A stretch of 64,000 bases of DNA from the IMG/VR virus record IMGVR_UViG_2773858002_000001, positions 27,802 through 91,801 of that record; one strand, given 5' to 3'. The position numbers and the translations under genes were made by a program. Positions 1,030-63,253 of the stretch are shown piece after piece (position 1 is the stretch's first letter; each line of letters opens with the position of its first letter). The stretch is from a virus. Lineage: Duplodnaviria > Caudoviricetes. The notes under the pieces were generated by a model that saw only the letters and a list, made by a program, of their open reading frames with translations, ran no database searches and was not told the origin of the DNA.

Positions 1030-1079
1030 ACACTAACAGTTGTGCAATTAATTGCAATTCAAGAATGCAGTTAATTGCA
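1030..1079 (-). promoter_or_regulatory. Sigma70-like promoter with two palindrome sites
   Basis: ATTGCA(1058-1053)-N17-TAGTGT(1035-1030). One site overlaps the -35/spacer (1043-1056); the other is 7 nt upstream of the -35 (1066-1079). Confidence 0.6.
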
Positions 1080-1607
1080 CTTGATGGCTAATTTTCCGAC
1101 CACCATACGCATGTCTTTCGTGATCCCCGGAAGGCGGTTCGATATAGCCAGCCCCATGGCCGCTAACCCATACGCATCGGCAGTGTTGTTGCTTATCGCG
1201 GTGTGCCCCCACCTCTTCAGGACGTACATCATGACCTGCTCCTTCGGGGAACCGCCTTTGCCGGTGACGAACTTCTTTAGCTCTGAGGCGCTGGGATCGT
1301 ACCATTTAAAGCCATCCAACACGAGCATGAAGCGGAGAAGTCCGCCAAGCTCTACCAACGGTATGGTGCTGTTGGGGTTCTTGCCGAGGGAATACCCCTC
1401 CAGGACCAAACGATCCGGCTTGAACTCGTGGATCGCGGTCATGACCTTCTCGACAATGAACCGGGTGCGTTCAACACCCCTCATATCTCCAGTTTTGATT
1501 TCGAACTCGGCCAACAGGTCAGGTGTCGCTGTACCGTTCTCACGTAGCACCACGATGCCGGTTGCTGTGGCAGACGGATCAATACCTATCGATGTCAGGG
1601 GCATCAT
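1071..1607 (-). CDS. ruvC: RuvC-like Holliday junction resolvase
   Basis: IGIDPS..ATG, LVLEG, LKKFVTGKG..KEQV and ADAYGLA motifs. Confidence 0.88.
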   Translation of the reverse strand: MMPLTSIGIDPSATATGIVVLRENGTATPDLLAEFEIKTGDMRGVERTRFIVEKVMTAIHEFKPDRLVLEGYSLGKNPNSTIPLVELGGLLRFMLVLDGFKWYDPSASELKKFVTGKGGSPKEQVMMYVLKRWGHTAISNNTADAYGLAAMGLAISNRLPGITKDMRMVVGKLAIKCN

Positions 1608-1837
1608 CTCCGCACCCCTCTCTGGGACAACTTCCAGAAATCCGACAAGCCATCGAGTTGCGCGTCAACAATCGCATGTGCTCTGACGCGCTGGCTCTCC
1701 TGCTCCTTGGGATCATCACAGATCACCGCTGCCAAGAACTCGTTCAGTGCAGCTTCGAGCAGGAGCTTGCAAGACGCGAGACGGTTCTGAACCGCCACAG
1801 CCTTCTCTTGATCACTTTCCATTGTTTTTCCAATCAT
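1604..1837 (-). CDS. Hypothetical protein
   Basis: 77-aa ORF packed between neighbours with overlaps; start uncertain. Confidence 0.6.
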   Translation of the reverse strand: MIGKTMESDQEKAVAVQNRLASCKLLLEAALNEFLAAVICDDPKEQESQRVRAHAIVDAQLDGLSDFWKLSQRGVRR

Positions 1838-2729
1838 ACTCGGGCGGGAACTCTCCGCTGAAGCACGCTTTCTTGAACTCGCAACCCGCCGCCCGCTTGG
1901 ACATTGAGGACGAACAGATGCCGCACGGCATACCGACCTTGCCGTCCCGGAAGTCTTTCACAACCTTGGCTCTGAACGCCGGCTCCTTGGTGGCTTTGTC
2001 GTCGCGCTCTACAAAGAACTCCTTGAACGGACTGAAGTTGTCGGAGAGCCCCCACTTCTTGACCTCCGGATCGGCGCACCCGTAACCCCCTTTGGTTGTG
2101 TAGAGTATCGCCGCCTCCGACGTATCGATCTGACTAGCCCACGGACTGTCGCTTTCAGCGATGATCCGCAGATAGAGGTTCGTCCTCCACTTGTGTTCCG
2201 CAAGAGGGGCTTTCAGAGACTTGAACTCGTCCTTGTCCATGGTCTTGATCTCATGGGGCACGAGCTTCGGCCCACCTAGAGCCAGCAGCATATCCACGCC
2301 GCACGACGCGCCTGTCTTCGCGCTCTTGAAGCGTACTTCCTTCGGCTCAAGCGTCCGTGTGCCACACGTCTCGCACTTCTCGGGCCGTAAGCAAAACTGA
2401 TGCACGCTGCCGCAGGCTACGCACTTCCAGTGACACACGGCCCGACCCATCTCCGCGAACCAAAGCACGATGTTCCGTTCCTGGTCACGCCCGATCTGGA
2501 ATGTCATCCGTTCTGATGCGGACAGCCAGCGATCCTTCGGCTTAACGTTCGTGACATCATGCAGAGCGTACGCACGGGGGCACATACCTTCCGGCTTCGT
2601 CAGGTCCGACGCGTGCACGGTCGCCATGGGTCGCGCCTTGTCAAAATTCGACAGGTGCTGATGGAGAAAGAACTTTGCTGTCCTCTTCGGCTGGAAGTCC
2701 TTGGCCTTCTTCAGGAACGTGATCGCCAA
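1812..2729 (-). CDS. Cas4-like PD-(D/E)XK exonuclease
   Basis: HASDL..CPR, GVD, EIKT, and C-terminal Cys cluster (C..C...C...C); TTG start inferred. Confidence 0.72.
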   Translation of the reverse strand: MAITFLKKAKDFQPKRTAKFFLHQHLSNFDKARPMATVHASDLTKPEGMCPRAYALHDVTNVKPKDRWLSASERMTFQIGRDQERNIVLWFAEMGRAVCHWKCVACGSVHQFCLRPEKCETCGTRTLEPKEVRFKSAKTGASCGVDMLLALGGPKLVPHEIKTMDKDEFKSLKAPLAEHKWRTNLYLRIIAESDSPWASQIDTSEAAILYTTKGGYGCADPEVKKWGLSDNFSPFKEFFVERDDKATKEPAFRAKVVKDFRDGKVGMPCGICSSSMSKRAAGCEFKKACFSGEFPPEYDWKNNGK

Positions 2730-2730
2730 C

Positions 2731-3075
2731 TCACCACCCCTTACTCTCAAAGAACCACTCGTTCAGGCTGGCCAGAGTCTGCTTGCCGGTGTCCGGCATG
2801 ATCTGGATCGTCATCGACAGATCAAACTCCAGTCCGTCATAGCTGTAGCTCGCGGACTGGTTGACTTCCTTGATCATGATGCCCTGAGCCGTCAGAGCGT
2901 CGAGTGCCAATTTCACGGGTATGTCCTTCGGTTCCGGCAACGGCACTGCTACGGGCTGCAGTGCAGAAAGGTCGCTGGCGGTCTCCCAATAGAGTTTGGC
3001 TGCCTCCGCACTGACCAGTTCGTACGGAAGCACCTCTTTGACCGGCAGTGCCTTCGCCTTCTCGATCCATTTCAT
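2731..3075 (-). CDS. Hypothetical protein
   Basis: ATG overlaps the upstream stop (ATGA). Confidence 0.6.
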   Translation of the reverse strand: MKWIEKAKALPVKEVLPYELVSAEAAKLYWETASDLSALQPVAVPLPEPKDIPVKLALDALTAQGIMIKEVNQSASYSYDGLEFDLSMTIQIMPDTGKQTLASLNEWFFESKGW

Positions 3076-3425
3076 TTCAGGTGCCCTTCCCAGACATGGC
3101 GAGGCACAGCCACCCAATCCCCGTCGAGGATCGCCCGTCCATCAGGTGTGACAAAGGAGATTGCCAGCGCGGGTGTCTTGCCTTCGGATCGTGCCTCATG
3201 AGCGATCTTCAGGAGCCAGTCTCTCTTGAGGCCGATAGACAGACCCGTGGTGCTCTTTGCCTCCATGAGCACGGAACCGAGGTCGATGTCTCCTTTCGCA
3301 CCCTCCACCGCTCCGGAGGCTGGTCGGTTCCGCCCACCAAGCTGTCGGGCAAGGCGCTGCTCTGAGGCCCTGCCAGACTTGCCGATGGCGTGCTTCTGCT
3401 TCCGCTTCAGGTAGGGGTTATCCAT
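3072..3425 (-). CDS. PD-(D/E)XK nuclease, Hjc-like resolvase
   Basis: G.ASEQRLA, SGA..KGDI and EAKST motifs. Confidence 0.7.
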   Translation of the reverse strand: MDNPYLKRKQKHAIGKSGRASEQRLARQLGGRNRPASGAVEGAKGDIDLGSVLMEAKSTTGLSIGLKRDWLLKIAHEARSEGKTPALAISFVTPDGRAILDGDWVAVPRHVWEGHLK

Positions 3426-4755: not shown

Positions 4756-4795
4756 TTCTCGCTCCTGTGCAATTAATTGCAATGCCGACTTGCGG

Positions 4796-6577: not shown

Positions 6578-6639
6578 CCCTCACTATTCCTGCAAGCGGG
6601 GGGCTGATTGCAGGAAATGCAATTAATTGCACGAAACGC

Positions 6640-7536: not shown

Positions 7537-7586
7537 AGGATAGACGAAAGGCATAGCCGGTCAACAAAAAAGTGCAATTAATTTCA
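7537..7586 (-). promoter_or_regulatory. Sigma70-like promoter with palindrome 7 nt upstream of -35
   Basis: GTTGAC(7565-7560)-N17-TATCCT(7542-7537); site at 7573-7586. Confidence 0.72.
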
Positions 7587-9727: not shown

Positions 9728-9777
9728 ATCCTACCGGTATGGCGTGGCCGGACAAGGATTTTGTGAAATTAATTGCA
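9728..9777 (-). promoter_or_regulatory. Sigma70-like promoter with palindrome 7 nt upstream of -35
   Basis: CTTGTC(9756-9751)-N17-TAGGAT(9733-9728); site at 9764-9777. Confidence 0.72.
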
Positions 9778-11634: not shown

Positions 11635-12587
11635 TTTTCTGAACCGTCTCCCGACCCGAGGATTGCCATCAGTTCCTCAAAGGACTTCGGCTGATCGTCC
11701 TCTTCAGGTTGTGAAATTAATTGCACAATCTTTGCCGCAGGTAAACCGGGAGAAGCCTCCTGCTTTTCCGGCCCCGGCAGTTTCGATGATGTCGCCAATG
11801 CTACAGCGATCCATGCATGTTTCAAGAGGAAATCGATGCTCGGGTGGCTCGGCGTGGATTTGATGCCGGCCTTGGTCTCAACATCCTTCACGAACTCCAC
11901 CCAATTCCTGATCGACCACTCCAGCACCTTGGCAGCAGTGCCCTCGGGACACTTCGCGAGAAAGTGCTTCATCTGGCCGAGTTGCTTTTTGGTAACGTGA
12001 ACCATGCTCTGCTCGTAAACGTCTGCGAACGTCTCCTTCCAGACGAACTCCAGCTGCTTCACCGTGTCGGGTTTATGGAGATGCTTCTTTGCCGCCTGGG
12101 CTGCCAGTGTTTCGGATATTTTCATTATCGTCCCGTCCTCGTGTTCACACCCCTCCGGCTCCGTGGCGGGAGAACTCCCGCTACTCACTTTCTTATCTCC
12201 CTTCTTTACCTCACTAAGAACCGAAGGTTCTTTTATGGGAGTGCCCACAGGGTAACCATGAAGAGTGCCCTCTGGGTCACTACCGGCAGTGCCCTTGAGG
12301 GCATTCAACGCCAGGTCCGTGAGCCGGAAAAATCCGTGCCTTTTGCCCCGGTAGAGATGGTACTCGGCTGTCACCAACCCGGCCTCTTTGAGGCGCTTGA
12401 TCGCGTTGGTGTACTCCTTCAGGGTGCACCCTGTTTCCTCCAACCACTCATCCCGGCTCATAACGACCCAACGGTGCGGGCCTCTTCTGATTTTCGTCTT
12501 CCCCATCCAATAGGACAGGCGCAAAAGCACCGCCGCTGCAGGCCATGTACCGGCGAGAGCTTTCGCTTGCGCGATAGGGTTCTTCAC
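11631..12587 (-). CDS. Putative replication initiator (N-terminal winged HTH)
   Basis: WVVMSRDEWLEETGCT....NAIKRLKEAGLV wHTH pattern; upstream of loader and DnaB. Confidence 0.65.
   Translation of the reverse strand: MKNPIAQAKALAGTWPAAAVLLRLSYWMGKTKIRRGPHRWVVMSRDEWLEETGCTLKEYTNAIKRLKEAGLVTAEYHLYRGKRHGFFRLTDLALNALKGTAGSDPEGTLHGYPVGTPIKEPSVLSEVKKGDKKVSSGSSPATEPEGCEHEDGTIMKISETLAAQAAKKHLHKPDTVKQLEFVWKETFADVYEQSMVHVTKKQLGQMKHFLAKCPEGTAAKVLEWSIRNWVEFVKDVETKAGIKSTPSHPSIDFLLKHAWIAVALATSSKLPGPEKQEASPGLPAAKIVQLISQPEEDDQPKSFEELMAILGSGDGSEK
12240..12304. repeat. Three iteron-like repeats at 24-bp period (candidate origin)
   Basis: AGTGCCCACAGGGTAAC (12240), AGTGCCCTCTGGGTCAC (12264), AGTGCCCTTGAGGGCAT (12288), inside the initiator gene. 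Confidence 0.45.
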
Positions 12588-12623
12588 GTGACGCTCCAGC
12601 GACGTTGCAATTAATTGCAGATG

Positions 12624-13343: not shown

Positions 13344-13375
13344 CGTTTCACTCCTTTGATCTGATGCAATTAATT

Positions 13376-14590
13376 TCAATCTTGCGCGCCGGCCTTCTCT
13401 TTGGAAACCGGTTTTTTGAGGGCCTTCACGAATGCGTAGGTCGCCTTCGTCAAAGCTGCTTGGCTGTACTTGACGGGCTGGCTGCCCGCGATCTCGGGAG
13501 TCTTCTTCACAATGTCAGCGATTTGAAGCGCGGATACCCCCTTCGCCTGTTCAAATGTGTTGAGAACAGACTTGACGAACGGCACCGCCTCCGAGCTGTC
13601 GAGGCCACCAAACCACATGCTCTCATCGATACGACCTTCACGGTACAACTCTTTAGGGAGCGCCTTGGCGTTGTTCGTGGTCATAACCACAAAGACCTTT
13701 GTTCTCCGCTCCGCAAGCCACCACAGAAGCTGCGAGAGCATTGTTGAGGTGGTTCCGTCATGGCTCCCGGACTGGAACACTTTCTCGACTTCATCGAGCA
13801 GGGCCACACAAGGTTCTTCGTGATCGAGCCGAGTGAGATTGGTCAGCATATTCGCTTCGGACTGGCCGACGTACTTGTTCTTCGTGCCACCGATGTCCAC
13901 CCGGTATAGCGGGATACCCCATTGCTCGGCCAGATAGCGCGCCCCGGCAGTCTTGCCGGTTCCGGGCGGGCCGTCGAACAACAGCCCTCGCGGCGTCAGC
14001 CTGTGGTCTGTCCCCTCCAGAAAGAACGACTTTTCCTTGGCGGTGAATTCAGCCAGCTTTTCAGGTGGATCATAGAAGTCCTGCCGGAGATCGACCTGAG
14101 CCAAACCACTGGAGCCCTGAAAACTGCTCCGGCGTGTCTCGGTCAGACCCTGCACTGTAAGGCTATTGTCCCTTGCCATGGTCAACCGGGCAAACTCGGC
14201 AGCCTCCTTCAGCGTGCACCCACCCAGGCCACGCGTGAGCACTGTCGCAGTCTTCAGATCGCTGGTGACCTTGTTGACGAATTGCAACAGAAGTTTCTTC
14301 GGCGTCGGGACTTCGCCGGCATCAAACATCGGCTCACACACCTGCGACGGGTTCACGAGTATCAGGGAACTCTCCAGCTTCACCAGTTTCTCGTAGAACT
14401 CGAACAGCGGGAGCTTGGAGCCGTCCCCGCCTGTTTGAAGGTAAACCGTGTCGGGTTCGAGTTTCGTCTGGGGGACGAACTTCACAGGCTTCCTGCCGGT
14501 GATCTCTCGAACGACAGTCGGCAGGTTGAGGGTATCTCTGGTTGTGACTGCAATAATCGGCAGCTGCGCTTGAACCGCGAGCTTTAGCAT
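13376..14590 (-). CDS. AAA+ ATPase (Ycf46-like)
   Basis: PRGLLFDGPPGTGKT, KYVGQSE, LLDEVEK, ELYREGRIDE. Confidence 0.9.
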   Translation of the reverse strand: MLKLAVQAQLPIIAVTTRDTLNLPTVVREITGRKPVKFVPQTKLEPDTVYLQTGGDGSKLPLFEFYEKLVKLESSLILVNPSQVCEPMFDAGEVPTPKKLLLQFVNKVTSDLKTATVLTRGLGGCTLKEAAEFARLTMARDNSLTVQGLTETRRSSFQGSSGLAQVDLRQDFYDPPEKLAEFTAKEKSFFLEGTDHRLTPRGLLFDGPPGTGKTAGARYLAEQWGIPLYRVDIGGTKNKYVGQSEANMLTNLTRLDHEEPCVALLDEVEKVFQSGSHDGTTSTMLSQLLWWLAERRTKVFVVMTTNNAKALPKELYREGRIDESMWFGGLDSSEAVPFVKSVLNTFEQAKGVSALQIADIVKKTPEIAGSQPVKYSQAALTKATYAFVKALKKPVSKEKAGAQD

Positions 14591-14620: not shown

Positions 14621-14663
14621 ACTATGCCAGATAGTCGAGCCGTGACAAGTGCAATTAATTGCA
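14621..14663 (-). promoter_or_regulatory. Sigma70-like promoter with palindrome abutting -35
   Basis: CTTGTC(14649-14644)-N17-CATAGT(14626-14621); site at 14650-14663. Confidence 0.6.
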
Positions 14664-16631: not shown

Positions 16632-16748
16632 AAGAACCTCCACGCCTTGGCGTGTGCAATTAATTGCATTTCCGCCCTTGTATCAGAGCCGAGGTAGGCT
16701 GTCGTCCACGGGCCAGCGCTTCGGTGCAAACAGCGACCCAGCGCCCAT

Positions 16749-19278: not shown

Positions 19279-21782
19279 TACGGGGTGGCCTCCAGGTCTC
19301 CGATCAAGTCCCACTCATCGGCAGCCACTTTCACGAGCGATGCCGAGCTATGCTGCTTTCTCAATCGGTTGGTCTCGGGCGTATTGAGGACAACCGCCCC
19401 TTCAGGCAGAACCGTGACCTGGCCGCTGCCGGATTGCCTGATCTGAATGACGCTACCCACAGGTATCGCAGCAGACGCATCCAGGGGCACCGTGACGTTC
19501 ACGGGATCGCTGGACGAAATACGAACGTAAGTCCGCTCTGCATCTGCGAGGGTCAACGTGTAGTCACTCGCCTGCCCGTTTAGGCGCAGCGTCCCCTCCC
19601 CTGCTAAGTCTCCAGGCACCCAGCTTTGCTCCTGCGCGTCCCAAACCAAAGCTTGCCCATCGCTCGGCGGTGTCGTTGTCAGATCAACGTCGGTCAGGCC
19701 GTCCAAACCCATTGCCACCACGCCCTGCTGGGTTCGAGGCCCTGCTGGAAAGTCAGGGTCTTCCCAGAACGTCACCAGAGTGCCGGCTGTGCCGTCATGC
19801 GTGGCGTTCGACCTGTTGGTGATGCCCACCCGATCAGGTACGCCCTGGAGTGTGGCTGCGGGATCAATCGGGTCACCAAAATTCTGCCAAAGCAATCCAT
19901 CAGACGACACCCAGGCGCGGATGACATTGCCGTCGAAGCCAAGCCTGAGCCAATTGTAGAGGTTCGGTTCGTTCTTGAGGATCGTCTCCGTCCCGGAGGG
20001 GCTTACCCAGCCGAGGCGGAGTTGCGCCTGCGTATCCGAGTTCGAATTTCCGAGTGCAAGGAACACGAAGGCATTATTGAACGCGCGCTGGACGACCACG
20101 CCGCCCATGTGCCCGGAGACCTCGAAAGAAGACGGAACCAGGCGCGTCGTAACGATCCACGGCTCGACCCGGTTGGTCAGATCACGGTAGACGACGGCAT
20201 GCTTCACACCACTCGACTGTGGTCCGCCCTGAACGATCAGACCCCGAGCTTCCATCTCCACAAAGTCAGCCGATGGCGCGTTATGTCGTCCTGGGAACAT
20301 GTTCGCTTTCGGCGGAGCAAATGGACCGAACTCGTATGTCGCCGGCACGTATTCGCTTTCACCTATGGGTGATCCACCTCCACCGCCTTCGCCGGGCACC
20401 CATATTTGGTTGGCGGCATCATAGGTCAGAACGTTGCCATCGACCGGGGCATTCGTCTCCAGATCGACATCCTCCAACTCCCCTAACGCGGCGATGAGCT
20501 CCTGGTCTCCGATGTCCAAAGTCAACGTACCGCTGATGTTCGTTACGTTGACACCCGATCCAGTGAAATTAATTGCACTTATCGGGTCGCCTTCGACGGG
20601 CGTCCCGTCGCCAAGAAATTCCAGGGCGTTCTGCGCAGTCAAAATGAGATGCCCGTTCTCAGGCATCTGCACATCGAACCCGTTGAATGACATGCTGACG
20701 ATCTGGTCTGTCAGCGGAGTAGAACCGTCGGTCGCCGCAATCGAATAATCCGATTGAGGTGCGTACTCGTAGCTGTAATCAGCGCCGGTCTTCTTGAGGC
20801 GCAGGAACATGCCCACGCTTGGATCATTCGGCGTGGCCACGTCAGTCAGGTCTTGCAGCCGGAAATCTTCGAGATCGGCTATGAGGTCTTGAAGCGAGCG
20901 GAACACGAGCTCGCTTTCTGTGGGATCAACCACGAGGAAATGGTTGCCGAACCCTTCCATCGTCTGCGGGCCATCAACCATCCCCAGAAACGAATAGGTG
21001 ATTACAGCAGGGCTCGGCCCCCAAGCGGCACCGTTCCACGCCAGAACGTCGTTCGGTTCCGCACCGTCCGTAACAACATCGGTAAGGTGCCCAAGCTCGG
21101 CGGCCGGAAACGCATAGGCCGTGAAGGTTGCCTTTCCATTTTGCCACGTCATGAGCTGGCCGTCCTGTGGCGACCCGAGCTCCACGTCAGTCAGTTCGTC
21201 CAGACTTGTCGCCCCTCCCCCACTCGGGGGTTCAACGTTCACCCATTGATTGCCGCTCTCGCTCCATGCAAGCATCTGACCGTCGGCCACGGTCGTGAGA
21301 GTGACATTGGCCAAGTCTCCCAAGTTGGGGATGCCTAAAGGAGCTTTTGCTTCCCAGCGGTTTTCTGCCTCGTCAAACGTCAGAACGTCACCGTCATTCG
21401 GGCTCACTATGCCGACGTTCGTGAGGTCGTCGAGCGTCGAAGGCGTCCCGGCTGGGTCTTCAGTCCACCCAGAACCCGAATAAGTCCAGAACGATGCGCT
21501 GGCCTCGTTGAAGAACTTCATCTTCTGCAGGGGAGCGTAGAACCGCCAGCCGTTGAAGTAGAGTGCGACCCGGTTCTCAAAGCCGCTCCACGCACCCGTA
21601 GGTGTCACACCCACAATGTAGGTGTCTCCCTGGGCCGGGGAGCTCGGTGGGTTGTTCTGAATGCCCTTGGCAGAGCGCGCCACCATGGCATCGAAAACCA
21701 CGGCAGCCTCGTTGAAGACGACTTCTTTCTGGACATCGTTCGATGCCATCAAGCGCACGCCGAGCTTTGGGGTCTGTGCCAT
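19278..21782 (-). CDS. DUF2793-type tail fibre protein
   Basis: TPKLG....QKEV..NEA, PP.SP..GD.YIV...TGAW.G; seven LxDLTDV-like repeats. Confidence 0.8.
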   Translation of the reverse strand: MAQTPKLGVRLMASNDVQKEVVFNEAAVVFDAMVARSAKGIQNNPPSSPAQGDTYIVGVTPTGAWSGFENRVALYFNGWRFYAPLQKMKFFNEASASFWTYSGSGWTEDPAGTPSTLDDLTNVGIVSPNDGDVLTFDEAENRWEAKAPLGIPNLGDLANVTLTTVADGQMLAWSESGNQWVNVEPPSGGGATSLDELTDVELGSPQDGQLMTWQNGKATFTAYAFPAAELGHLTDVVTDGAEPNDVLAWNGAAWGPSPAVITYSFLGMVDGPQTMEGFGNHFLVVDPTESELVFRSLQDLIADLEDFRLQDLTDVATPNDPSVGMFLRLKKTGADYSYEYAPQSDYSIAATDGSTPLTDQIVSMSFNGFDVQMPENGHLILTAQNALEFLGDGTPVEGDPISAINFTGSGVNVTNISGTLTLDIGDQELIAALGELEDVDLETNAPVDGNVLTYDAANQIWVPGEGGGGGSPIGESEYVPATYEFGPFAPPKANMFPGRHNAPSADFVEMEARGLIVQGGPQSSGVKHAVVYRDLTNRVEPWIVTTRLVPSSFEVSGHMGGVVVQRAFNNAFVFLALGNSNSDTQAQLRLGWVSPSGTETILKNEPNLYNWLRLGFDGNVIRAWVSSDGLLWQNFGDPIDPAATLQGVPDRVGITNRSNATHDGTAGTLVTFWEDPDFPAGPRTQQGVVAMGLDGLTDVDLTTTPPSDGQALVWDAQEQSWVPGDLAGEGTLRLNGQASDYTLTLADAERTYVRISSSDPVNVTVPLDASAAIPVGSVIQIRQSGSGQVTVLPEGAVVLNTPETNRLRKQHSSASLVKVAADEWDLIGDLEATP

Positions 21783-36487: not shown

Positions 36488-36570
36488 GACACGAACCTCG
36501 CCTTTGTTGCGCGTGCAATTAATTGCACATACGGAAAAAGGGTCAATGCGTGCGCGTTGATGCGGTATGC

Positions 36571-38886: not shown

Positions 38887-38969
38887 TTCGCTCTCCTTAG
38901 CAGCCACAAAAACAAGCGGGGCCAGCCTACGATAGACCAGCCCCACGTGCAATTAATTTCACAACACCG

Positions 38970-41783: not shown

Positions 41784-41875
41784 GTTCTTTGCCCAAATGA
41801 TGTTTCATCGACTTGGGTCGGACCATAATTTCGTACGTGTTCTTGTGCAATTAATTGCACATACACCGGATCAAA

Positions 41876-45371: not shown

Positions 45372-45433
45372 GATCGTCCTCTCGCGCAACCTCAACTCAG
45401 TGCTTCTATCGTGCAATTAATTGCACACTCAAG

Positions 45434-49288: not shown

Positions 49289-49338
49289 ATTCTACCTTTG
49301 GACCGTCGCCTAGCAAGGAAAAAGTGCAATTAATTTCA
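49289..49338 (-). promoter_or_regulatory. Sigma70-like promoter with palindrome 7 nt upstream of -35
   Basis: CTTGCT(49317-49312)-N17-TAGAAT(49294-49289); site at 49325-49338. Confidence 0.75.
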
Positions 49339-51168: not shown

Positions 51169-51218
51169 AGTCTATCTTTTTGACATGTGAGAGCAACCAA
51201 AAAATGCAATTAATTGCA
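51169..51218 (-). promoter_or_regulatory. Sigma70-like promoter with palindrome 7 nt upstream of -35
   Basis: GTTGCT(51197-51192)-N17-TAGACT(51174-51169); site at 51205-51218. Confidence 0.72.
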
Positions 51219-52305: not shown

Positions 52306-54315
52306 TTATCGACCCAATACCGAGAAGGCGGCAAACTCTGCCGGGACCGCCATTGGCACGTGCTGCATACCTTCTCCGGCTGGTTTGTAGCCTGCCTCAT
52401 GCAGGACCGGGAACATCGCCCACGGCGTGATCGACAAACCATGCAGTTCGTCGGCCCGATCATGCAGAACTTTGGCGATCTCCACACGGAACGGTGTGTC
52501 GTCGTGCTGGTCTCCGAAGCACCTCCCGAGGGCAGCATCCGCATCAGGTATGAACTCGCTAGGCGCTCGCAAGTCCAAGGTCACGTGCTGTCTGCTTGGT
52601 AGATCGGCCACACCGTCGAGGATCGCATTCAGTACGTCCAGATTTCCCCACCAATGCGCGGCCATGATTGTGTGAGGTTTGTCAGCCCCCAGATCGATGG
52701 CGGACGCCTCGCAACACCCAAGCACGTCCATACACCACCCCATCACTGCCGCAATTTCGGGCGCGTCCGAGCTATCGATAACTGGAACTTCCGTGTCTAC
52801 CCAGACCCGTCCCGTGGAACCGTCTATCGTGACCCGCTTCAAATCACTGTACTTGGCATTGTGTTGCAGCCCGGTGATGTCGAGATCAGTGCACCCCACC
52901 ACGCAAGCCTTGTCCATGGCCCGAGCAACCACTGCAGCGTGGCTGGTGGCTCCCCCGGTCTGCGTCAAAATACCAACAGCAGCATTCATGCCGGCAATGT
53001 CATCCGGGGTCGTCTCATGCGTAATCAAGATGCAAGGCTCTTTGCAATTAATTGCATCCTGTGCAGAGAATACGGGGACACCAAAGACAACGCCAGGACA
53101 CGCTGGCAGACCTTCATAATGCGCTGGACCACTGAATGTCGGATCGATGGCGGGCCTGCGTACAATCTTGAACTGGTCGCTCGTCAGGCGCGACCGCGCG
53201 GTCCCTTTGTCGATCACACCTTCCTTCACGAGATCGACCGCAATCTTGAAGGCAGCTCGTGCCGAACGCTTGCCAACACGGCTCTGCAGCAACCACAGCT
53301 TGCCCTGCTGAACGGTGAACTCCAAATCCACCATGTCGTCGTACATCGCTTCCAGATCGGAGCAGAGCGTACAGAACTCCGTGGCCCAAGGCGGGCTCTT
53401 CGTCTCAAAGAGTTCGTCCAGCGAGTATGGTGTTCGAATACCCGCCACCACGTCCTCCCCCTGCGCGTTGTGCAGGTACTCGCCCATCGTGTGGTTCTCG
53501 CCCGTCGAGGGGTCGCGGGTGAACGCCACGCCTGATCCACTGTCGTCGCCCATGTTGCCGAACACCATTGCCTGAATGTTGACGGCTGTGCCCATAGCCT
53601 CATCGATCTTGTTGATCTTGCGATACTCGATAGCACGCTCGTTCATCCAGCTGTCGAAGACGGCCTTCGTGGCAGCCCGTAGCTGTTCCTCTCGGGTCTG
53701 CGGAAACTCGTGTTGCGTGACCGCCTGAAACACCATCTTGTAGCGTTTGATCAGCTCTCGCAGATGGTCTGGGGTCAGATCACCGTCTTCCGACACGCCG
53801 GTGGCGTCTTTGATGTCTTCAAGGTGCTCGTCAAACAGCACCATGGCAACGCCATAAGCTGTGGCTCCGAGCATCTGTATCAGGCGTCGGTAGCTATCGA
53901 GAGCCGCCCGTTCACCGATACGTTCCTCCCACGCCGGCAGCGTCTTGTCCGTCAGGCCGACGTTCAGGATCGTGTCCATCATGCCTGGCATCGAGATCGG
54001 GGCACCCGACCGAACTGATACGAGTGGCGTAAAGCCCATCTCGCCTCTCAGCCATTTGTCGTGTTCCACAATCTCTTCCATCAGCAGATCGATGAAGACA
54101 TCCTTGCTGTTCGCCATCTCGGTCGTATCGTCCGGAGCAGCCATATACTGGTTGCAGACGGCTGTGGTCACCGTGAAGCCGGGGGGCACGGGCATCTCGG
54201 CCTGACACATCTTCACCAAGCCGGCACCCTTGCCACCAAGCAACTTCTTGGCGTCAGACGCGCTGCCGGTCCAGTCGCAGTGGCTCTGGGAGAACCTGAA
54301 AATTCGCTGATCCAC
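52306..54315 (-). CDS. PPDK-like protein (ATP-grasp + phospho-His domains; pyruvate/PEP barrel missing)
   Basis: LLGGKGAGL, VPPGFT, LVSVRSGA..SMPGMMDTILN, AQGEDVVAG, GGATSHAAVVAR; 669 aa with a non-PPDK C-terminus. Confidence 0.9.
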   Translation of the reverse strand: MDQRIFRFSQSHCDWTGSASDAKKLLGGKGAGLVKMCQAEMPVPPGFTVTTAVCNQYMAAPDDTTEMANSKDVFIDLLMEEIVEHDKWLRGEMGFTPLVSVRSGAPISMPGMMDTILNVGLTDKTLPAWEERIGERAALDSYRRLIQMLGATAYGVAMVLFDEHLEDIKDATGVSEDGDLTPDHLRELIKRYKMVFQAVTQHEFPQTREEQLRAATKAVFDSWMNERAIEYRKINKIDEAMGTAVNIQAMVFGNMGDDSGSGVAFTRDPSTGENHTMGEYLHNAQGEDVVAGIRTPYSLDELFETKSPPWATEFCTLCSDLEAMYDDMVDLEFTVQQGKLWLLQSRVGKRSARAAFKIAVDLVKEGVIDKGTARSRLTSDQFKIVRRPAIDPTFSGPAHYEGLPACPGVVFGVPVFSAQDAINCKEPCILITHETTPDDIAGMNAAVGILTQTGGATSHAAVVARAMDKACVVGCTDLDITGLQHNAKYSDLKRVTIDGSTGRVWVDTEVPVIDSSDAPEIAAVMGWCMDVLGCCEASAIDLGADKPHTIMAAHWWGNLDVLNAILDGVADLPSRQHVTLDLRAPSEFIPDADAALGRCFGDQHDDTPFRVEIAKVLHDRADELHGLSITPWAMFPVLHEAGYKPAGEGMQHVPMAVPAEFAAFSVLGR

Positions 54316-54347: not shown

Positions 54348-54397
54348 ATCCTAACAGTATGCCGCCCCCAAGCAAGAAAAATGTGCAATTAATTGCA
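54348..54397 (-). promoter_or_regulatory. Sigma70-like promoter with palindrome 7 nt upstream of -35
   Basis: CTTGCT(54376-54371)-N17-TAGGAT(54353-54348); site at 54384-54397. Confidence 0.75.
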
Positions 54398-56942: not shown

Positions 56943-57558
56943 GATCGATAACCTTCATGCGCTGATCGATCAGTTCGGACATGCGCTGTGCGAGAGCCAT
57001 GAGGCGGTCTTGCTGGGCCACCTTCCGCGTGAACTCTGCGCCCCCATCGTCTGTGGTGCCGATGTGCGCGATCACCTTCGGAGTCAGGCCAAGCAGCTCC
57101 GAACGGTGCTCATGTACTTTCAAGATCGAGTTTAGATAACCAAGTGGAGCCTGTGGGCTCGTCTTCTCATCCAGGTTGGTCAGGCGGGACCAGAGTTCGC
57201 TTTCAATGAGGTCCAGGCGGGCAAGCCCTTCGCCGCGATGCCGAGCGAAATCCTGCGTCGTTCCGAAGACCTCCCATCGTGCATGTACCCGCCTGATATA
57301 GCGATCCATTGCACGCCCGTCGTTGATGTCCAGAAGGGCCATAAGCTGCCGCTTGTTGCGTACGCCCTTCATCATCATGAGTTCGACACGAGCCACCTGC
57401 TGCTCGTCGTACTCCTGAGCCTCGCCGTTGGTGCGGTCGTACTGTGGACTCTCAGGAACTTCCACGCGGTTAGGTAGGGTGGCGCGTTCCTCCAAGGGAA
57501 GGCGCTCCCTAACCTTCTTCAGATCGACCCTCTTCCGCCTGATCTTGACCTTGGACAT
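56923..57558 (-). CDS. Putative terminase small subunit
   Basis: HTH-like helical protein overlapping the TerL start. Confidence 0.6.
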   Translation of the reverse strand: MSKVKIRRKRVDLKKVRERLPLEERATLPNRVEVPESPQYDRTNGEAQEYDEQQVARVELMMMKGVRNKRQLMALLDINDGRAMDRYIRRVHARWEVFGTTQDFARHRGEGLARLDLIESELWSRLTNLDEKTSPQAPLGYLNSILKVHEHRSELLGLTPKVIAHIGTTDDGGAEFTRKVAQQDRLMALAQRMSELIDQRMKVIDHGGEGT

Positions 57559-58460
57559 CAGCTCTTCTTCGCCGCCGCCTGTTTCTTCGCCTCCTTCGCC
57601 TCAGCGTCGTTGGCGAGCTTGTCGTAGATTTTCGCGTGGGCAGCCTTAGCGATCTCGGCCTGCTTGTCCTTGGGCAATGCGTTGAAAGTCTCGCAGATCA
57701 CCGCAAGCGCGACGTTGCGCAGCTTTGCCCCGGCAATGCCCATGGCAGCTTTCATGGCATTGTCGTAGCTGGCGACCTCATGACCGATCAACGCGGTAAC
57801 GTCATCACCTGCGATCTTCATGGCCTTCTTCATGGCCGTCGTATATGCGGAGTGCTCATCCGGCAGCAGAAGCAGGTTCACAGAGATCGGACGCTCGACG
57901 TCCTGGGCTGTCATCTTGATGCCGTCTGACGGGTTGAAATCCGGCACCTGCAGAAGCTTCAGGACCGATGTTTGTTCATCCTCACCGATACCGGTCATCG
58001 CCCGGATTTCCTGGGAGCTGTAATCGTTGTGTAGATCAACAAGCAGCCGCGCCAATTTGATGGGAATATTCTGTCCGCGCAGATTGTTCATCGAAAGCGT
58101 GCGAACCTTCGCCCGCTTGTCGTCAAACGGAACGACGATGATCGGGATCACCTTCTTACCGGCGACCTTCGAAGCTCGCCAACGGTGCTCGCCGTCAACG
58201 ATCAGGAACTTGCCCTCCTGTTCGGGATTGAGGCGGCAGAGGATGGGCTGGTTCATGCCCTCTTCCTTCACCTGTTGGACAATAGCCTCGAAGAACTCGG
58301 CCTCCATGTCGTTCGGGTTGTACTCGTTCGGCTCGACGTCATCGATTGGAACGACACGAAAGTCGATGCTCTCGTCCATGGCCTCCGGGCTAGCGTCGGC
58401 CTGTGCAATTAATTGCGCATTCGTCTCAGATTTCTTCGGCTTCTTCAGGTTCAGTGCCAT
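57558..58460 (-). CDS. ParB/Srx-like N-terminal domain protein
   Basis: PNEYNPN, G..QPI, IVDGEHRWRA, MNNLRG. Confidence 0.88.
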   Translation of the reverse strand: MALNLKKPKKSETNAQLIAQADASPEAMDESIDFRVVPIDDVEPNEYNPNDMEAEFFEAIVQQVKEEGMNQPILCRLNPEQEGKFLIVDGEHRWRASKVAGKKVIPIIVVPFDDKRAKVRTLSMNNLRGQNIPIKLARLLVDLHNDYSSQEIRAMTGIGEDEQTSVLKLLQVPDFNPSDGIKMTAQDVERPISVNLLLLPDEHSAYTTAMKKAMKIAGDDVTALIGHEVASYDNAMKAAMGIAGAKLRNVALAVICETFNALPKDKQAEIAKAAHAKIYDKLANDAEAKEAKKQAAAKKS

Positions 58461-59313
58461 CATCGCCCTCCGTGGTGCGTAGCATTTCAGGTGTCATGCG
58501 CTTGGCGTCGAGCTGGTCGGACAGCCGGTAGCGCGAGGGATCAATCTGTATCGTAGAGCCGACAGAAAGCGACGACATGCGAGCTTTAAGCCAACGTTCA
58601 CGCCAGTAGTCGATTTGATCGGCCAGGGTGAACGTGGCGGTCTTGCCGTAAGCGTCGGTCTCGCCCCGAAGGAACGGGACCGCTTTCTTCCGCAGTTCCA
58701 TACCATAAAAGCCGTGATCGGTTTCATCAACATCAATCAGCTGTACGCCGCGCTGATGAAGTCGGTTGTACTGACTGCCTTTGCCGTGGAGTGTGCGGAT
58801 GCCGAAGAACAGGTACTGATAGCTGTAACGCAGCTCCAAAAGGCGAATGACGTCTCGGCTCGTAGCGGCCAGAGCAAGGAGCTTTCCGCCCGTCATCTGA
58901 CCGAACTCGAACACGGGAAGGCACCGCCGCATCATCACGACCCTGTGCTGGTTCGCTAGGCGCAGGTGCTCGTGCTCTTTGTGCCACCCCAAATGGTCTA
59001 TCAGCTGCGTCCAGTGGTTCGGTGGGTCCGACAGACCCACGACACCTAAGAAGCCGCCAGACACACGGTCTCGCACGAGCAAGGCAAGTGACCGGCCTGC
59101 CCCGGCAAAGTGCGGTGACTGCGGCTCCGACGAGAGCACCACACGCCAGTAATCAAAGAGGTCACGAGCCAGCCCTTTGTCCACTACGACGACCTCCGGA
59201 TCGAACGTCGCAAGGTCTACTGGAACGCACATGCGAAGAGCCTGGTGTTCGACGTCACAAAGCCTTCGCAACCACTTGTTCTGTGTCTTGATCTTGTCGA
59301 TTGGTGCCGGCAT
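58426..59313 (-). CDS. DUF4338/DruA-like GNAT-fold protein
   Basis: GR.L..LVRD...G.FLG...L, LGW, GGKLLAL...S, HGKGSQYNRL; TGATG coupling. Confidence 0.7.
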   Translation of the reverse strand: MPAPIDKIKTQNKWLRRLCDVEHQALRMCVPVDLATFDPEVVVVDKGLARDLFDYWRVVLSSEPQSPHFAGAGRSLALLVRDRVSGGFLGVVGLSDPPNHWTQLIDHLGWHKEHEHLRLANQHRVVMMRRCLPVFEFGQMTGGKLLALAATSRDVIRLLELRYSYQYLFFGIRTLHGKGSQYNRLHQRGVQLIDVDETDHGFYGMELRKKAVPFLRGETDAYGKTATFTLADQIDYWRERWLKARMSSLSVGSTIQIDPSRYRLSDQLDAKRMTPEMLRTTEGDDGTEPEEAEEI

Positions 59314-60365: not shown

Positions 60366-61300
60366 CTCTTCACCGTGTAGAAAGCAATCTTTTGGGCAAC
60401 GAGACGATCCTTCCACTCCCGGATCGTCTTGGTGTCAGCAGTGCCGTCGTTCTCCAGAGCAAGCCTCCCGAAAAGGTGAGCCATCTCCTGGTAGCCAAGC
60501 ATGTTGGCGTGCTTGACAGGAGCGTTCCGGTCAAATCTCTGCGTGTACGCGGTCCAGTGCATGTCCGTCAGCTGACACGCCATGTTGAGTGAAATTAATT
60601 GCGCATCGTGTCGAACACCGATGCAGCCGAGGTCGGGCACCGCATGCTGCAACGCAGTCCAGTTCTCCAACAACCAGTCGATACTGGTCTTGTCATATGT
60701 CCTAAACTTCAGGTCTGTGTTCTGGCGATACCAAGTCTTCACCAGCGCCTTGTATTCATCGGCTTGAGCCTGATGGTAGACCTCGATCTCGCACAGGCGT
60801 TTCGCCTTGTTCACGTTCCCTCGCATCTGCCGGTTTCTCTTCCCTGGAAACGTCTGAACGTCCTCGGTCCGCATCACGTACTCTTCGTGCTGCTTCGAAA
60901 CCGAATAACCGCCCTTCTTGATGTGCAAGGCTATAGGTTCGGGGACGAGGGCGAGTTCACGCCCCTTTTCAAGACGGTGAACAACGGTCTGGTAGTAGTC
61001 TGTTGCAGACCCTGTGGGGATCACCCGGTCAACGTTGTCGTCTGCGAGAATGACGCCACCGCTCCCCTCGACCACCTGAAGCTTACCCAACGCGATCTTC
61101 GGCAGAGCGTTCAGAGGGGAAAACGCGAAAGCAGGTGCCCCGCAGGACACCATGGCTTCACGCATTGCTGGTAGCGCTTCTATGTAAATTTGGAGCGGGC
61201 GGCTCTCTTCGATGAGGCTACCTCTCCGGGAAGGAGAGGACCGGACCTTACCGGCACCCGCGTTGTTCTTTCGTTCTGCCACAGCTCGACCCTTCGTCAA
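60362..61300 (-). CDS. DUF2156/MprF-C-like aminoacyl-tRNA-dependent GNAT transferase
   Basis: EYVMRTEDVQTFPGKRNRQMRGNVNK and C-terminal N.G.AD...IREWK pattern; no TM domain. Confidence 0.6.
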   Translation of the reverse strand: MTKGRAVAERKNNAGAGKVRSSPSRRGSLIEESRPLQIYIEALPAMREAMVSCGAPAFAFSPLNALPKIALGKLQVVEGSGGVILADDNVDRVIPTGSATDYYQTVVHRLEKGRELALVPEPIALHIKKGGYSVSKQHEEYVMRTEDVQTFPGKRNRQMRGNVNKAKRLCEIEVYHQAQADEYKALVKTWYRQNTDLKFRTYDKTSIDWLLENWTALQHAVPDLGCIGVRHDAQLISLNMACQLTDMHWTAYTQRFDRNAPVKHANMLGYQEMAHLFGRLALENDGTADTKTIREWKDRLVAQKIAFYTVKR

Positions 61301-61867: not shown

Positions 61868-62317
61868 CTATTTTTCGAGGATAGCAGGTTGCGGCCCTCG
61901 GGCTTGATCCTGATACTTTCCGCCGTACACAGCCTCGGCTGGTCGGTCGAGAACATGGAAGATGATCTGGGCGATGGCTGTCCCATCTTCGACCACGATC
62001 CTCTCTTTGCCGTGATTTGTAAGCTCCAGGGTCAGATACCCCCTCCAGCCCGGTTCGATTACCGTGTTCTGGGCTGCCAGTCCGAGCCGTGCCCACGTGC
62101 TCTTATCGTGCACAATCCCCAGCAGGTCGTGCGGCATTGAGAAATGCTCAAGCGTGGAGGCGAGAGCGAACGCTCCGGGTTCCAGAACGACTTTTTGATC
62201 CACCCGCACATCGTAGCCAGCAGGACCGAGGCCGTAGGTCAGGCCGTTGTATTTGGTCCGCTCCGAAAAGGGGTAGAAGATGCCACGCTCACGAATGCTG
62301 ACGCCGCTGAGGATCAT
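61868..62317 (-). CDS. dcd: dCTP deaminase
   Basis: YGL..AGYDVR, DKSTWARLGL, TVIEPGWRGYLTLE, Y.GKYQ.Q. Confidence 0.9.
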   Translation of the reverse strand: MILSGVSIRERGIFYPFSERTKYNGLTYGLGPAGYDVRVDQKVVLEPGAFALASTLEHFSMPHDLLGIVHDKSTWARLGLAAQNTVIEPGWRGYLTLELTNHGKERIVVEDGTAIAQIIFHVLDRPAEAVYGGKYQDQARGPQPAILEK

Positions 62318-62661
62318 GTGTAGCTCCTGACGTCGAGTTCCCGGTGCTGGATTTCTACGACATGCCCCAGCCGGCGCAGCTTCACAGCAAGCATCTCGGC
62401 CATAGCCACGGACCTATGCCGTCCGCCGAAGCATCCGAAGGCAACCGAACCGCCCTCCACAGCACCAGCAAGCGCAAAGTCCTGCAGCCTGTCGAATGAG
62501 AAGTCTGTTTTCACATACCGCTGCACCTTCCCGTCGAGACCCGTCAGTCTCTTGAGCTCGGGAACGTTGTGTGGGTTTTTCATCGAGCGACAATCAACGA
62601 TCAGCGCTGCGTCGTGTGGCTGACCGTACTTGAAGCCGAAAGAAATTAATTTCACAGTCAT
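62314..62661 (-). CDS. Stand-alone RapZ C-terminal domain protein
   Basis: SFGFKYG.P, D.R...NP, LTGLD..V, GC.GGRHRSV..AE, HREL. Confidence 0.85.
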   Translation of the reverse strand: MTVKLISFGFKYGQPHDAALIVDCRSMKNPHNVPELKRLTGLDGKVQRYVKTDFSFDRLQDFALAGAVEGGSVAFGCFGGRHRSVAMAEMLAVKLRRLGHVVEIQHRELDVRSYT

Positions 62662-62665
62662 GCGA

Positions 62666-63190
62666 TTACCATTCCCAATGTGGCAGTTCTTCGATCACAG
62701 GGGCGTCCCGGTCGAACATGATCCAGTCACAACCGAAGCTGACGGCTAGCTTGATAGCCTCTTCCAGCTCAGTAGGAACCTCGTTCGGATGGAGAGGATC
62801 GTCCATTGTCGTCGTGTGGACCCACCAGCCGTATTTGCCCTTTTCAAACACCGTGACACCGTAGATTGTGTCCTCGCTGAGCCTCTTGGCGGTCTCTGAG
62901 GTGACATGCGAAGTGCTGATGGCCAACATCTTCTCGGTCTGCGAATGAAAGACCTGTGTCGTCGCATCGAAGCCGTGCTTCTGAAGAACCTGAATTGCCA
63001 TCTTCACTTCTGAAGTCGGATCAAGATGCTTCAGAGCCTCCAGCCAAGCCGTGGCCTTCTGAACCACGTCCTGTTCCCATTCGGTCGGGGGCTCATCAAT
63101 CAACGTGTTCTCGTCTGCCGTCTCAATGAACGTTTGCGCCATACCAACGACATGCCTCAGCTCATTGAATGTCGGTTCGGTGACGATCAC
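62666..63190 (-). CDS. DUF5983-like protein
   Basis: ISTSHV, YGWWV, GCDWIMFDRDA....LP.W.W; GTG start with AAGGAGG RBS. Confidence 0.65.
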   Translation of the reverse strand: MIVTEPTFNELRHVVGMAQTFIETADENTLIDEPPTEWEQDVVQKATAWLEALKHLDPTSEVKMAIQVLQKHGFDATTQVFHSQTEKMLAISTSHVTSETAKRLSEDTIYGVTVFEKGKYGWWVHTTTMDDPLHPNEVPTELEEAIKLAVSFGCDWIMFDRDAPVIEELPHWEW

Positions 63191-63207
63191 GGTGCCCTCC
63201 TTGGCAA

Positions 63208-63253
63208 TGCAATTAATTTCACTCACTCTAACAGATGATCGCCGGCTAGCAAG
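63208..63253 (-). promoter_or_regulatory. Sigma70-like promoter with palindrome over the start site
   Basis: CTTGCT(63253-63248)-N17-TAGAGT(63230-63225); site at 63208-63221, 3 nt downstream of the -10. Confidence 0.72.

Follow-up and report, generated by a model that had tools for sequence, protein, structure and literature searches.

Dispersed arrays of short DNA sites are already known in other phages. The stoperators of the Cluster A phages, bound by gp71 in L5 and gp69 in Bxb1, are dozens of short repressor sites lying in short intergenic regions of a temperate genome; site and repressor co-evolve between lineages, and silencing by a block to transcription has been proposed for them. In phiC31, also temperate and equipped with a serine integrase, repressor c recognises a conserved inverted repeat (CIR) of about 17 bp at many loci, often at promoters, and several repressor forms share one DNA-binding part. 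In the Cluster O mycobacteriophages (Corndog and relatives) a 17-bp dyad repeat, TGTTCGG-N3-CCGAACA, is present in more than 30 copies per genome of roughly 70 kb, many of them between genes and about one third inside genes, with neither orientation favoured; its function is described as unknown, and the repeats are contrasted with the stoperators (PMC4351075).

The array described here resembles that of Cluster O in being a dyad-symmetric repeat dispersed through a phage genome, but it shares neither sequence nor host phylum nor phage lineage with it, the Cluster O phages are not obviously temperate, and the present sites show a fixed promoter geometry, a tight association with stop codons and Shine-Dalgarno sequences (SD) and a candidate binder. 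Stoperators are asymmetric and oriented with transcription, whereas the present sites are palindromic and orientation-free. The CIRs are actinobacterial, of another sequence, fewer and mainly confined to the early region, although the phiC31 repressor forms may be comparable to the paralogs L and s described below. A further likeness is to the KorB-OB sites of RK2 and to ParB-parS and Noc-NBS, 13-16 bp palindromes scattered over a replicon, some just upstream of a -35 box and others promoter-distant or intragenic; however, L and s lack a CTPase domain and the site density here is far higher. No description of the motif or of this phage group was found in the searchable literature, so the earlier note's view of the motif as undescribed holds for both, but not for the kind of array, of which the Cluster O 17-bp repeats are a published example. 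The likely binder is undescribed as well.

The palindromes are probably operators, predicted from sequence, of a phage-encoded, sequence-specific dimeric DNA-binding protein. The full reading, a genome-wide operator network whose likeliest binder is the L/s pair, is given a probability of roughly 0.5; protein binding, the identity of the binder and the direction of regulation are what we infer from the patterns that follow.

In the 64-kb stretch of DNA analysed (the window) the exact 14-bp palindrome TGMAATTAATTKCA occurs 24 times, against 0.00 expected from dinucleotide shuffles, and the core AATTAATT 29 times, against 0.15, every core being embedded in a motif-like context. Five near-variants with one or two altered outer bases (at 28669, 42956, 58404, 60590 and 62641) and TGCAATTAACTGCA at 1066 bring the total to 30. 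The earlier note had thus been right on the number of copies, on the first (1043) and last (63221) coordinates, on the embedding of every core and on a chance expectation for the core below one. The sites, in window coordinates, are:

1043..1056, minus strand: site TGCAATTAATTGCA, in the gene L core promoter
1066..1079, minus: variant TGCAATTAACTGCA, tandem partner of the site at 1043 and separated by 8 nt from the downstream -35 box of P_L
4768..4781, minus: site in the order stop, 14 nt, site, 12 nt, ATG, the next gene's SD included
6618..6631, minus: intergenic, 8 nt past the stop of a gp32-like SSB gene, 106 nt before a helicase gene
7537..7586, minus: site TGAAATTAATTGCA, 8 nt (cttttttg), promoter TTGACC-16-TATCCT of the SSB-like gene
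9728..9777, minus: site, 8 nt, promoter TTGTCC-16-TAGGAT (pattern match)
11712..11725, minus: intragenic, 318-aa gene (HTH protein like that of RcZahn gene 51), towards its 3' end
12606..12619, minus: gene boundary, 4 nt after a stop, start 18 nt on
13365..13378, minus: gene boundary, first TGA is the upstream gene's stop, SD and ATG within 21 nt
14650..14663, minus: gene boundary, internal TAA is the upstream gene's stop
16655..16668, minus: intergenic, start codon 11 nt on
20564..20577, minus: intragenic, middle of an 834-aa tail gene
24697..24710, minus: intragenic, 150-aa gene
28669..28682, minus: variant AGCAATTAATTGCA at the tape-measure gene stop, SD and ATG 12 nt on
33268..33281, minus: gene boundary, 14 nt before the tape-measure ATG
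34264..34277, minus: site overlapping the stop (internal TAA) of an 88-aa gene
34540..34553, minus: gene boundary, 4 nt after a stop, start 4 nt on
36514..36527, minus: intergenic
38948..38961, minus: intergenic, 8 nt past the major capsid stop
41846..41859, minus: intergenic, preceding the capsid protease gene
42956..42969, minus: variant CGCAATTAATTGCA within a 546-aa gene
45412..45425, minus: intergenic, DNA polymerase/portal gap
49289..49338, minus: site (its TGA the upstream stop), 8 nt (ctttttcc), promoter TTGCTA-16-TAGAAT
51169..51218, minus: site, 8 nt (ttttttgg), promoter TTGCTC-16-TAGACT
53043..53056, minus: intragenic, middle of a 669-aa gene whose RcZahn match is annotated pyruvate phosphate dikinase
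54348..54397, minus: site, 8 nt (catttttc), promoter TTGCTT-16-TAGGAT of the 669-aa gene
58404..58417, minus: variant CGCAATTAATTGCA within the ParB gene, at the 5' end, 46 nt from the gene start
60590..60603, minus: variant CGCAATTAATTTCA within a 306-aa gene
62641..62654, minus: weak variant, three mismatches, core intact, just past the start codon of a RapZ_C-like gene
63208..63221, minus: site 33 nt past the XRE stop; SD and GTG of the next gene follow after about 17 nt

The array continues beyond the window, with 43 exact copies in the full 91.8-kb provirus record and 52 sites when up to two mismatches are allowed, a density of about one per 1.8 kb. The outer TGCA bases are invariant and both half-site variants are present in both orientations; of the 52 sites, 36 are preceded by G and 31 followed by C. 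The palindrome reported earlier is therefore real, but the site is 16 bp long, GTGCAATTAATTGCAC, rather than 14. Spacing between sites is more regular than chance (CV 0.69, p about 0.001), with a largest site-free gap of 4.6 kb, and this evenness is the one hint of a genome-wide role of the array, where the earlier note had suggested a structural or protective one.

The sites had been said to be both intergenic and intragenic; both occur, though far from equally, as gene boundaries overwhelmingly prevail. The genome is 94% coding, yet 41 of 52 sites are not wholly within coding sequence and 34 of the 56 intergenic gaps contain one; about 25 sites separate a stop codon from the ribosome-binding site that follows, and about 11 lie within long genes. 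Intragenic copies number 7, against 0.03 in synonymous-codon shuffles; the equal frequency in codon-preserving shuffles that the earlier note had named as counting against its claim is not found. At six sites a fixed geometry is found by pattern match, the site being followed after 8 nt by TTGNNN-16-TANNNT (0.03 expected), in the gene direction in all six and never in reverse. The centre of promoter-associated sites lies at about -50. Only 6-10 of the 52 sites adjoin predicted sigma70-like promoters, most promoters considered here being consensus predictions; matches in generic scans were not above those in shuffles.

The phage is a siphophage related to Rhodobacter phage RcZahn, and its large serine recombinase and provirus status indicate that it is temperate. 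Arrays of the form TGCA-N6-TGCA are present in the cultured RcZahn and in many prophages, the centre being, according to lineage, AATTAATT, CCYRGG, ATCGAT or the degenerate AATYAAYT (RcZahn, 28 sites), while what stays conserved is the outer (G)TGCA...TGCA(C), together with the gene-boundary contexts. The earlier note had also asked whether host chromosomes carry the motif equally often; two hosts of related prophages are essentially without copies outside the prophage. In a Hyphomicrobium MAG (4.5 Mb) 29 of 29 copies are on the prophage-carrying contig, and of the 20 variant sites in Roseococcus pinisoli, GC-rich in this case (TGCACCCGGGTGCA), 19 are within a 95-kb prophage. That one dimeric phage protein binds genome-wide, as first proposed, is thus supported indirectly, through the symmetry, the phage specificity, the lineage-varying centre and the fixed promoter position.

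The best candidate for this protein is encoded at the left edge of the window:

1..957, minus strand: gene L, encoding 403 aa and truncated by the window edge (complete at 27547-28758 of the full record, G000)
1030..1057, minus: predicted core promoter P_L, TTGCAA-16 nt-TAGTGT (pattern match)

In P_L the -35 box TTGCAA is made up of the left half of TGCAATTAATTGCA and the T before it, and the -10 box TAGTGT lies 7 nt past the site. An operator within the core promoter before L is found in nine contigs (this phage and eight others), the tandem pair of sites upstream of L also in G007, G003 and G011, and the predicted promoter P_s of s, a short paralog of L, has a similarly placed site. L was found in every relative tested and has more than 326 homologs, all unnamed. 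RcZahn has no s, and none was found in G014. From the N-terminus on, L has an acidic region, two helices that may form a SAP-like pair, a stretch rich in lysine and alanine, a helix-turn-helix domain and, at the C-terminus, a helical domain. No Pfam match, no PDB sequence match and no significant Foldseek match was obtained for L, and neither L nor s has a Pfam ParB N-terminal CTPase domain. In fold comparison the core of L weakly resembles the DNA-binding domains of ParB-parS, Spo0J and KorB-operator structures, with middling Z scores (5.5-7.2) that a RuBisCO-chaperone domain equals. The residue just before the putative recognition helix may be H, L, K or A with the motif unchanged and hence does not set specificity; the argument from covariation of L with the motif draws on two distant lineages only. 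L and/or s are the likeliest binder, at about even odds; among the three proteins proposed earlier, L is the best supported, the XRE protein possible and ParB disfavoured.

L thus joins an acidic N-terminus and a lysine/alanine-rich stretch to a helix-turn-helix weakly like those of ParB and KorB, without the CTPase domain. Where the site lies 8 nt upstream of the -35 box, a bound dimer could contact RNA polymerase or compete with it, and the site inside the L and s core promoters suggests autorepression. Sites at stop/ribosome-binding-site junctions and within genes would keep the entire genome covered and may help to silence or compact the prophage or act as roadblocks.

The alternative that survives best, though unlikely, assigns the sites to a second candidate:

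63255..63557, minus strand: XRE-family HTH_3 protein, 100 aa (Pfam HTH_3, E 4e-11)

It would be an immunity repressor with many operators, as with the L5 stoperators but symmetric, and L and s would be its targets. The protein clearly belongs to HTH_3, and 14-bp operators of 4+6+4 design are typical of 434-type Cro/CI proteins. Orthologs are found in G007, G011, G012, G002, RcZahn, G013 and G014. The gene keeps its place close to the prophage end, and its conservation equals that of L where contigs cover the region; it was not found in G001, G003 and G006, incomplete fragments all, which makes this weak evidence. Its recognition helix starts with N/G-R-S in same-motif phages and with D-R-A in both variant-motif prophages, but G013 and G014 share D-R-A and yet differ in motif. 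Moreover, the 17-nt gap before the gene is without a site, which in G000 and G013 lies downstream instead. The gene directly follows that of a GNAT acetyltransferase and the best PDB matches are the HigA/HipB antitoxins, so the protein may be a toxin-antitoxin-type regulator.

It is improbable that a host factor or RNA polymerase itself mediates the action of the motif, whether as an UP-element-like AT-rich promoter enhancer or as a binding site of a host nucleoid protein. UP elements do lie where these sites lie (a T-run and positions -57 to -44); phages from hosts of different orders, with L proteins sharing only about 55% identity, have exactly the same motif; and in a Reyranella MAG the variant motif is found at 29 places on the host chromosome as well, copies for which a purely phage-encoded system does not account. 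However, the Hyphomicrobium and Roseococcus chromosomes are without the motif, AT-richness is not decisive given the GC-rich Roseococcus variant, most sites are away from promoters, and the invariant outer TGCA argues for base-specific reading.

More improbable is a role as parS/OB/NBS-like loading sites for the phage's own ParB:

57558..58463, minus strand: ParB-family protein, 301 aa, with GEHRWRA and a ParB-type HTH, adjoining the terminase genes

Like KorB on plasmid RK2 and Noc on the Bacillus chromosome, this protein would spread along the DNA or clamp it, in the service of partition, packaging or long-range silencing. It is a genuine ParB/Noc/KorB relative, with GEHRWRA and an HTH region that aligns to Caulobacter ParB residues 14-177, the 16-bp palindrome has the parS format, and the gene itself carries a variant site in its 5' end. 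Nevertheless, this one true ParB is disfavoured because the motif-bearing prophages of G011, G013 and G014 have no ParB_N gene, although the same query did find the host ParB genes. The RcZahn counterpart is only 24% identical, and the placement beside the terminase genes would suggest a packaging or nuclease role.

There is very little probability that the sites are shared gene-boundary linkers through which recombination would help related phages to swap modules. Their location at gene boundaries and their identity across diverged, mosaic relatives would suit such a role, as would the RecA-like, RuvC-like and Cas4-like proteins that the phage encodes; but 14-16 bp is short for homologous recombination, and the fixed -35 distance, the operator in P_L, the palindromic symmetry and the even spacing would be left unexplained. 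Least probable of all is an RNA hairpin at cistron boundaries, serving as weak terminator, processing site or 5' stabiliser, for while the motif is transcribed between cistrons, could form a 6-bp stem with a UUAA loop and is followed by a T-run at six sites (one of them, at 54348..54397, also terminator-like in the generic scan), the stem would be short and rich in A and U against a genomic GC content of 57%, the half-sites of RcZahn vary independently and are often unpairable past 4 bp (TGCAATCAACTGCA), so that half-site sequence and not complementarity is conserved, and the G/C flanks and the location in promoter DNA upstream of transcription starts fit recognition of DNA.

The array that extends over this phage genome is built from a perfect palindrome of 16 bp, GTGCAATTAATTGCAC, which represents the true size of the site; its outer TGCA is invariant across the sites, and among 52 copies a G precedes in 36 and a C follows in 31. 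Pattern counts in the window gave 24 occurrences of TGMAATTAATTKCA and 29 of the core AATTAATT, for which dinucleotide-preserving shuffles predict 0.00 and 0.15, respectively, and the 30 copies counted in the earlier note are reached once near-variants are added to the exact ones. The whole 91.8-kb IMG/VR provirus record, of which the window covers bases 27802-91801 and whose GC content is 57%, contains 43 exact copies, and 52 when up to two mismatches are allowed. The motif string was not found in the literature searched.

According to a gene call based on codon-position GC and codon usage, 130 of the 133 genes lie on the minus strand and the coding share is 94%, and 41 of the 52 sites are not wholly within coding sequence. 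Of the 56 intergenic gaps that measure 25 nt or more, 34 contain a site, and in several further cases the site overlaps the upstream stop codon, the TGA of the site or its internal TAA being the stop. About 25 sites are placed right after a stop codon, 10-22 nt ahead of the next start and immediately before the ribosome-binding site. About 11 sites are intragenic, chiefly in long genes. The intragenic copies are also under selection: seven exact copies and 11 cores were found where synonymous-codon shuffles predict 0.03 and 0.29, so that the equal frequency in codon-preserving shuffles contemplated in the earlier note does not occur. Moreover, the sites are spaced more evenly than chance would have it (coefficient of variation 0.69 versus about 1.0, p about 0.001), and the largest gap between them is 4.6 kb versus about 8.7 kb expected (p about 0.001); both p values hold when the simulated sites are restricted to gene boundaries. 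The ribosome-binding region itself is strikingly uniform, with CCAAGGAGGG ahead of many genes (e.g. window 54310-54330 and 51070-51090), and especially frequent at genes downstream of site-bearing promoters.

The genes referred to below are the following (window positions unless otherwise stated):
1-957, minus strand, cut by the window edge: L, a protein of 403 aa with a shorter paralog, s, of 185 aa
52306-54315, minus strand: 669-aa protein
57558-58463, minus strand: ParB, 301 aa
63255-63557, minus strand: XRE, an HTH_3 protein of 100 aa
63575-64000, minus strand: GNAT acetyltransferase
G000:C1:1-1659 of the record, minus strand, outside the window: large serine recombinase

At six sites the same exact geometry is found in the direction of the genes, namely the site, 8 nt that are usually a T-run, TTGNNN, 16 nt and TANNNT. 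No copy was found in the reverse direction, the chance expectation being 0.03, and three to four further promoter-linked sites, located outside the window, are followed by a -35 box of variant sequence. A generic promoter scan recovered only two of these six promoters, and its output was not above that of shuffles. The position of the site at these six promoters would fit an UP element, that is, AT-rich DNA at -40 to -60. However, UP elements act through composition and shape rather than exact sequence, whereas the sites here keep an invariant outer TGCA, and in the Roseococcus relative sites in equivalent contexts have a centre rich in GC. The 669-aa protein has 57% identity to an RcZahn product with the annotation pyruvate phosphate dikinase; its gene has a promoter of its own that is linked to a site, and one site lies inside the gene.

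A different arrangement is found at gene L, where the site lies within the predicted core promoter: its left half and the preceding T form the -35 box TTGCAA, the -10 box follows 7 nt past the site, and a second site is located 8 nt farther upstream. The core-promoter arrangement is repeated before L in five relatives (G007, G003, G011, G001 and G012) and in three other contigs, while in the cultured Rhodobacter phage RcZahn the L promoter has instead the geometry of site, 8 nt, -35 box, 16 nt and -10 box. In the predicted promoter of s a degenerate site spans the -35 box in the present phage, in G007 and in the Hyphomicrobium prophage G011. An operator within the core promoter is the classical layout of autorepression. 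Here it occurs at the promoters of L and s only, and this is the strongest point, a circumstantial one, in favour of L and s as the proteins that bind the array. At three early-region sites of RcZahn (MW677529, 82723, 83894 and 84623), each followed by GGAGGTG and a T-run, the -35-like box lies 16-18 nt downstream of the site versus 8 nt in the window's phage. The shift of about 10 bp is about one helical turn, and hints at a dependence on the face of the helix.

Seven other IMG/VR records contain the identical motif at similar density (e.g. 39 copies in 96 kb and 21 in 50 kb). RcZahn is the sole named relative, shares its gene order with this phage across the structural and replication modules, and carries 28 TGCA-N6-TGCA sites with the consensus TGCAATYAAYTGCA in the same contexts, the control pattern being found 0 times; the words 'palindrom' and 'motif' do not occur in the 2021 RcZahn paper. 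A Roseococcus pinisoli prophage uses the variant TGCACCYRGGTGCA, with 19 of 20 copies inside 95 kb of one contig at stop/Shine-Dalgarno junctions, and a Reyranella prophage the variant TGCAATCGATTGCA. In RcZahn the half-sites vary independently of each other; hence what is conserved is the sequence of the half-site and not a pairing potential, which favours recognition by a protein dimer over an RNA hairpin. Nor do the sites have the make-up of intrinsic terminators: these need a GC-rich stem of about 7 bp or more and a U-run, whereas the stem of the site is AU-rich and of 6 bp, and only six of the 52 sites have at least five T in the next 8 nt, all six before -35 boxes.

The phage is temperate. 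The record has provirus status, its final gene encodes a large serine recombinase with Resolvase, Recombinase and Zn_ribbon_recom domains, presumably the integrase, and L is found in contigs of up to 648 kb, with homologs in megabase contigs of Nitratireductor and Sinorhizobium. The host comparison covered the genomes of hosts that carry related prophages. All 29 copies in a 4.5-Mb Hyphomicrobium MAG lie on the prophage contig, 24 in one 55-kb stretch and five in a second, and all nine copies in a Burkholderiaceae MAG lie on its 96-kb phage contig. A motif belonging to a host regulon, or one equally frequent in host chromosomes as the earlier note had considered, is thus not what these genomes present: copies outside the phage contigs number 0 in the two MAGs, and an isolate genome has a single near-copy beyond its prophage. 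The five-site cluster of Hyphomicrobium (G011:C4 229437-262947) is located about 60 kb beyond the main one, has a second s-like gene nearby (G011:C4 244435-244899), and together with it may be a second related prophage or its remnant.

Among the candidate binders, L and s have in common a domain (BLASTP E 2e-12) and gave no match in a Pfam search. All the relatives tested have L, among them RcZahn (gene 66) and the Roseococcus and Reyranella prophages, and its gene always comes after the RecA ... RuvC genes. Its HTH-like stretch is near-invariant among phages with the same motif and different in both variant-motif prophages. A specificity residue just before the conserved Y-R-K-A of L was discarded, as H, L, K and A all accompany AATTAATT. 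No sequence match in the PDB, significant Foldseek match or ParB_N match was obtained for L. Residues 170-310 are modelled with confidence by AlphaFold (pLDDT about 87), and with VIA-align residues 171-315 superimposed on the ParB-parS domain 6s6h (Z 7.2, 125 aligned, rmsd 5.7), Spo0J 1vz0 (Z 6.6) and the KorB-operator domain 1r71 (Z 5.5), a Raf1 domain scoring equally. The likeness of the modelled fold to the ParB/KorB DNA-binding domains may be taken as a lead only. Weak leads also came from a protein atlas ('DUF1016/ParB HTH' and DUF3102 clusters, score 0.83), and one close homolog of L has a Pfam match to the histone H1-like HC2.

XRE is a possible binder as well. It is kept in every relative whose data cover its region, and no site is present in the 17-nt gap that separates its gene from the preceding GNAT acetyltransferase gene. 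RcZahn has the same pair (genes 134 and 135), and the PDB entries closest to XRE are the HigA and HipB antitoxins; from these similarities the pair may be toxin-antitoxin-like. ParB, likewise proposed as a binder in the earlier note, is a true relative of ParB, Noc and KorB: it contains the motif GEHRWRA, and its HTH can be aligned with those of Caulobacter ParB, Noc, Spo0J and KorB. Its gene lies immediately upstream of those for the small and large terminase in this phage and, as gene 1, in RcZahn. It is nevertheless disfavoured, because the motif-bearing prophages of Hyphomicrobium, Roseococcus and Reyranella have no ParB_N gene; ParB genes of the host were found there. An Ogr/Delta-like zinc-finger protein of RcZahn, considered as a candidate activator, has no match among the proteins of this phage (tblastn, E 1e-4).

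Operator arrays that span a whole genome have been described for a few actinobacteriophages; to our knowledge their logic has been worked out for the L5-type stoperators only, and the Cluster O array awaits an explanation. As in Cluster A, where a site of 13-17 bp recurs dozens of times, many copies are distributed over a temperate genome in short intergenic positions (52 sites in 92 kb, 41 not fully coding). Stoperators, however, which are bound by the immunity repressor, are asymmetric and keep one orientation relative to transcription, whereas the site described here is a palindrome whose one-sided variants on the coding strand, TGAAA... (eight times) and ...TTTCA (nine times), are about equal, so that an orientation bias is absent. 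By analogy, the array would work most like the L5 stoperators, minus their defining asymmetry. Among published systems the nearest counterpart is the 17-bp dyad repeat, itself unexplained, of the Cluster O mycobacteriophages (PMC4351075). The conserved inverted repeat (CIR) of phiC31, a temperate phage with a serine integrase, likewise recurs at many loci. The ParB-parS, KorB-OB and Noc-NBS sites are also palindromes, of 13-16 bp, but their binder has a CTPase domain, and three motif-bearing prophages are devoid of ParB_N; the array resembles the KorB-OB network with the CTPase domain missing in L. The array described here is symmetric and belongs to temperate phages of Alpha- and other Proteobacteria that form a large and widespread group, with lineage-specific site variants, a conserved promoter geometry and an autoregulation-like promoter before a conserved, unnamed DNA-binding candidate.

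In the mechanism that we propose, all the sites would be bound by a phage-encoded dimer, most likely of L and/or s. At promoters with a site around -50 the bound dimer would contact RNA polymerase or compete with it; at the promoters of L and s it would repress its own synthesis; and the evenly spaced boundary and intragenic sites could serve genome-wide silencing, roadblocking or compaction. A more far-reaching reading, to which we give a probability of about 0.3, would make L and s an uncharacterised family of DNA-organising regulators, widespread in temperate phages of Proteobacteria. With a Lys/Ala-rich tail and a ParB/KorB-like HTH, and lacking a CTPase switch, they would use evenly spaced 16-bp palindromes to coat and silence a whole prophage of 90-100 kb and to set promoter activity, a ParB/KorB-like function devoid of nucleotide control, and sites of this kind might also be in use on the chromosome of at least one host, Reyranella. 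Should L or s prove to be the binder, a function could be assigned to more than 300 phage proteins now called 'hypothetical', and a handle on the immunity and gene control of this phage group would be gained. As RcZahn is cultured on Rhodobacter capsulatus, the predictions are directly testable.

In the 6.5-Mb Reyranella MAG (G014) 29 exact copies of the 14-mer TGCAATCGATTGCA are scattered among many contigs of the chromosome (e.g. loci L162-L181). The flanks of these copies are unrelated, the copies often lie in open frames and are usually followed by CG, and exact copies exceed those with one mismatch (29 versus 15). They may reflect a use of the same kind of site on the host side.
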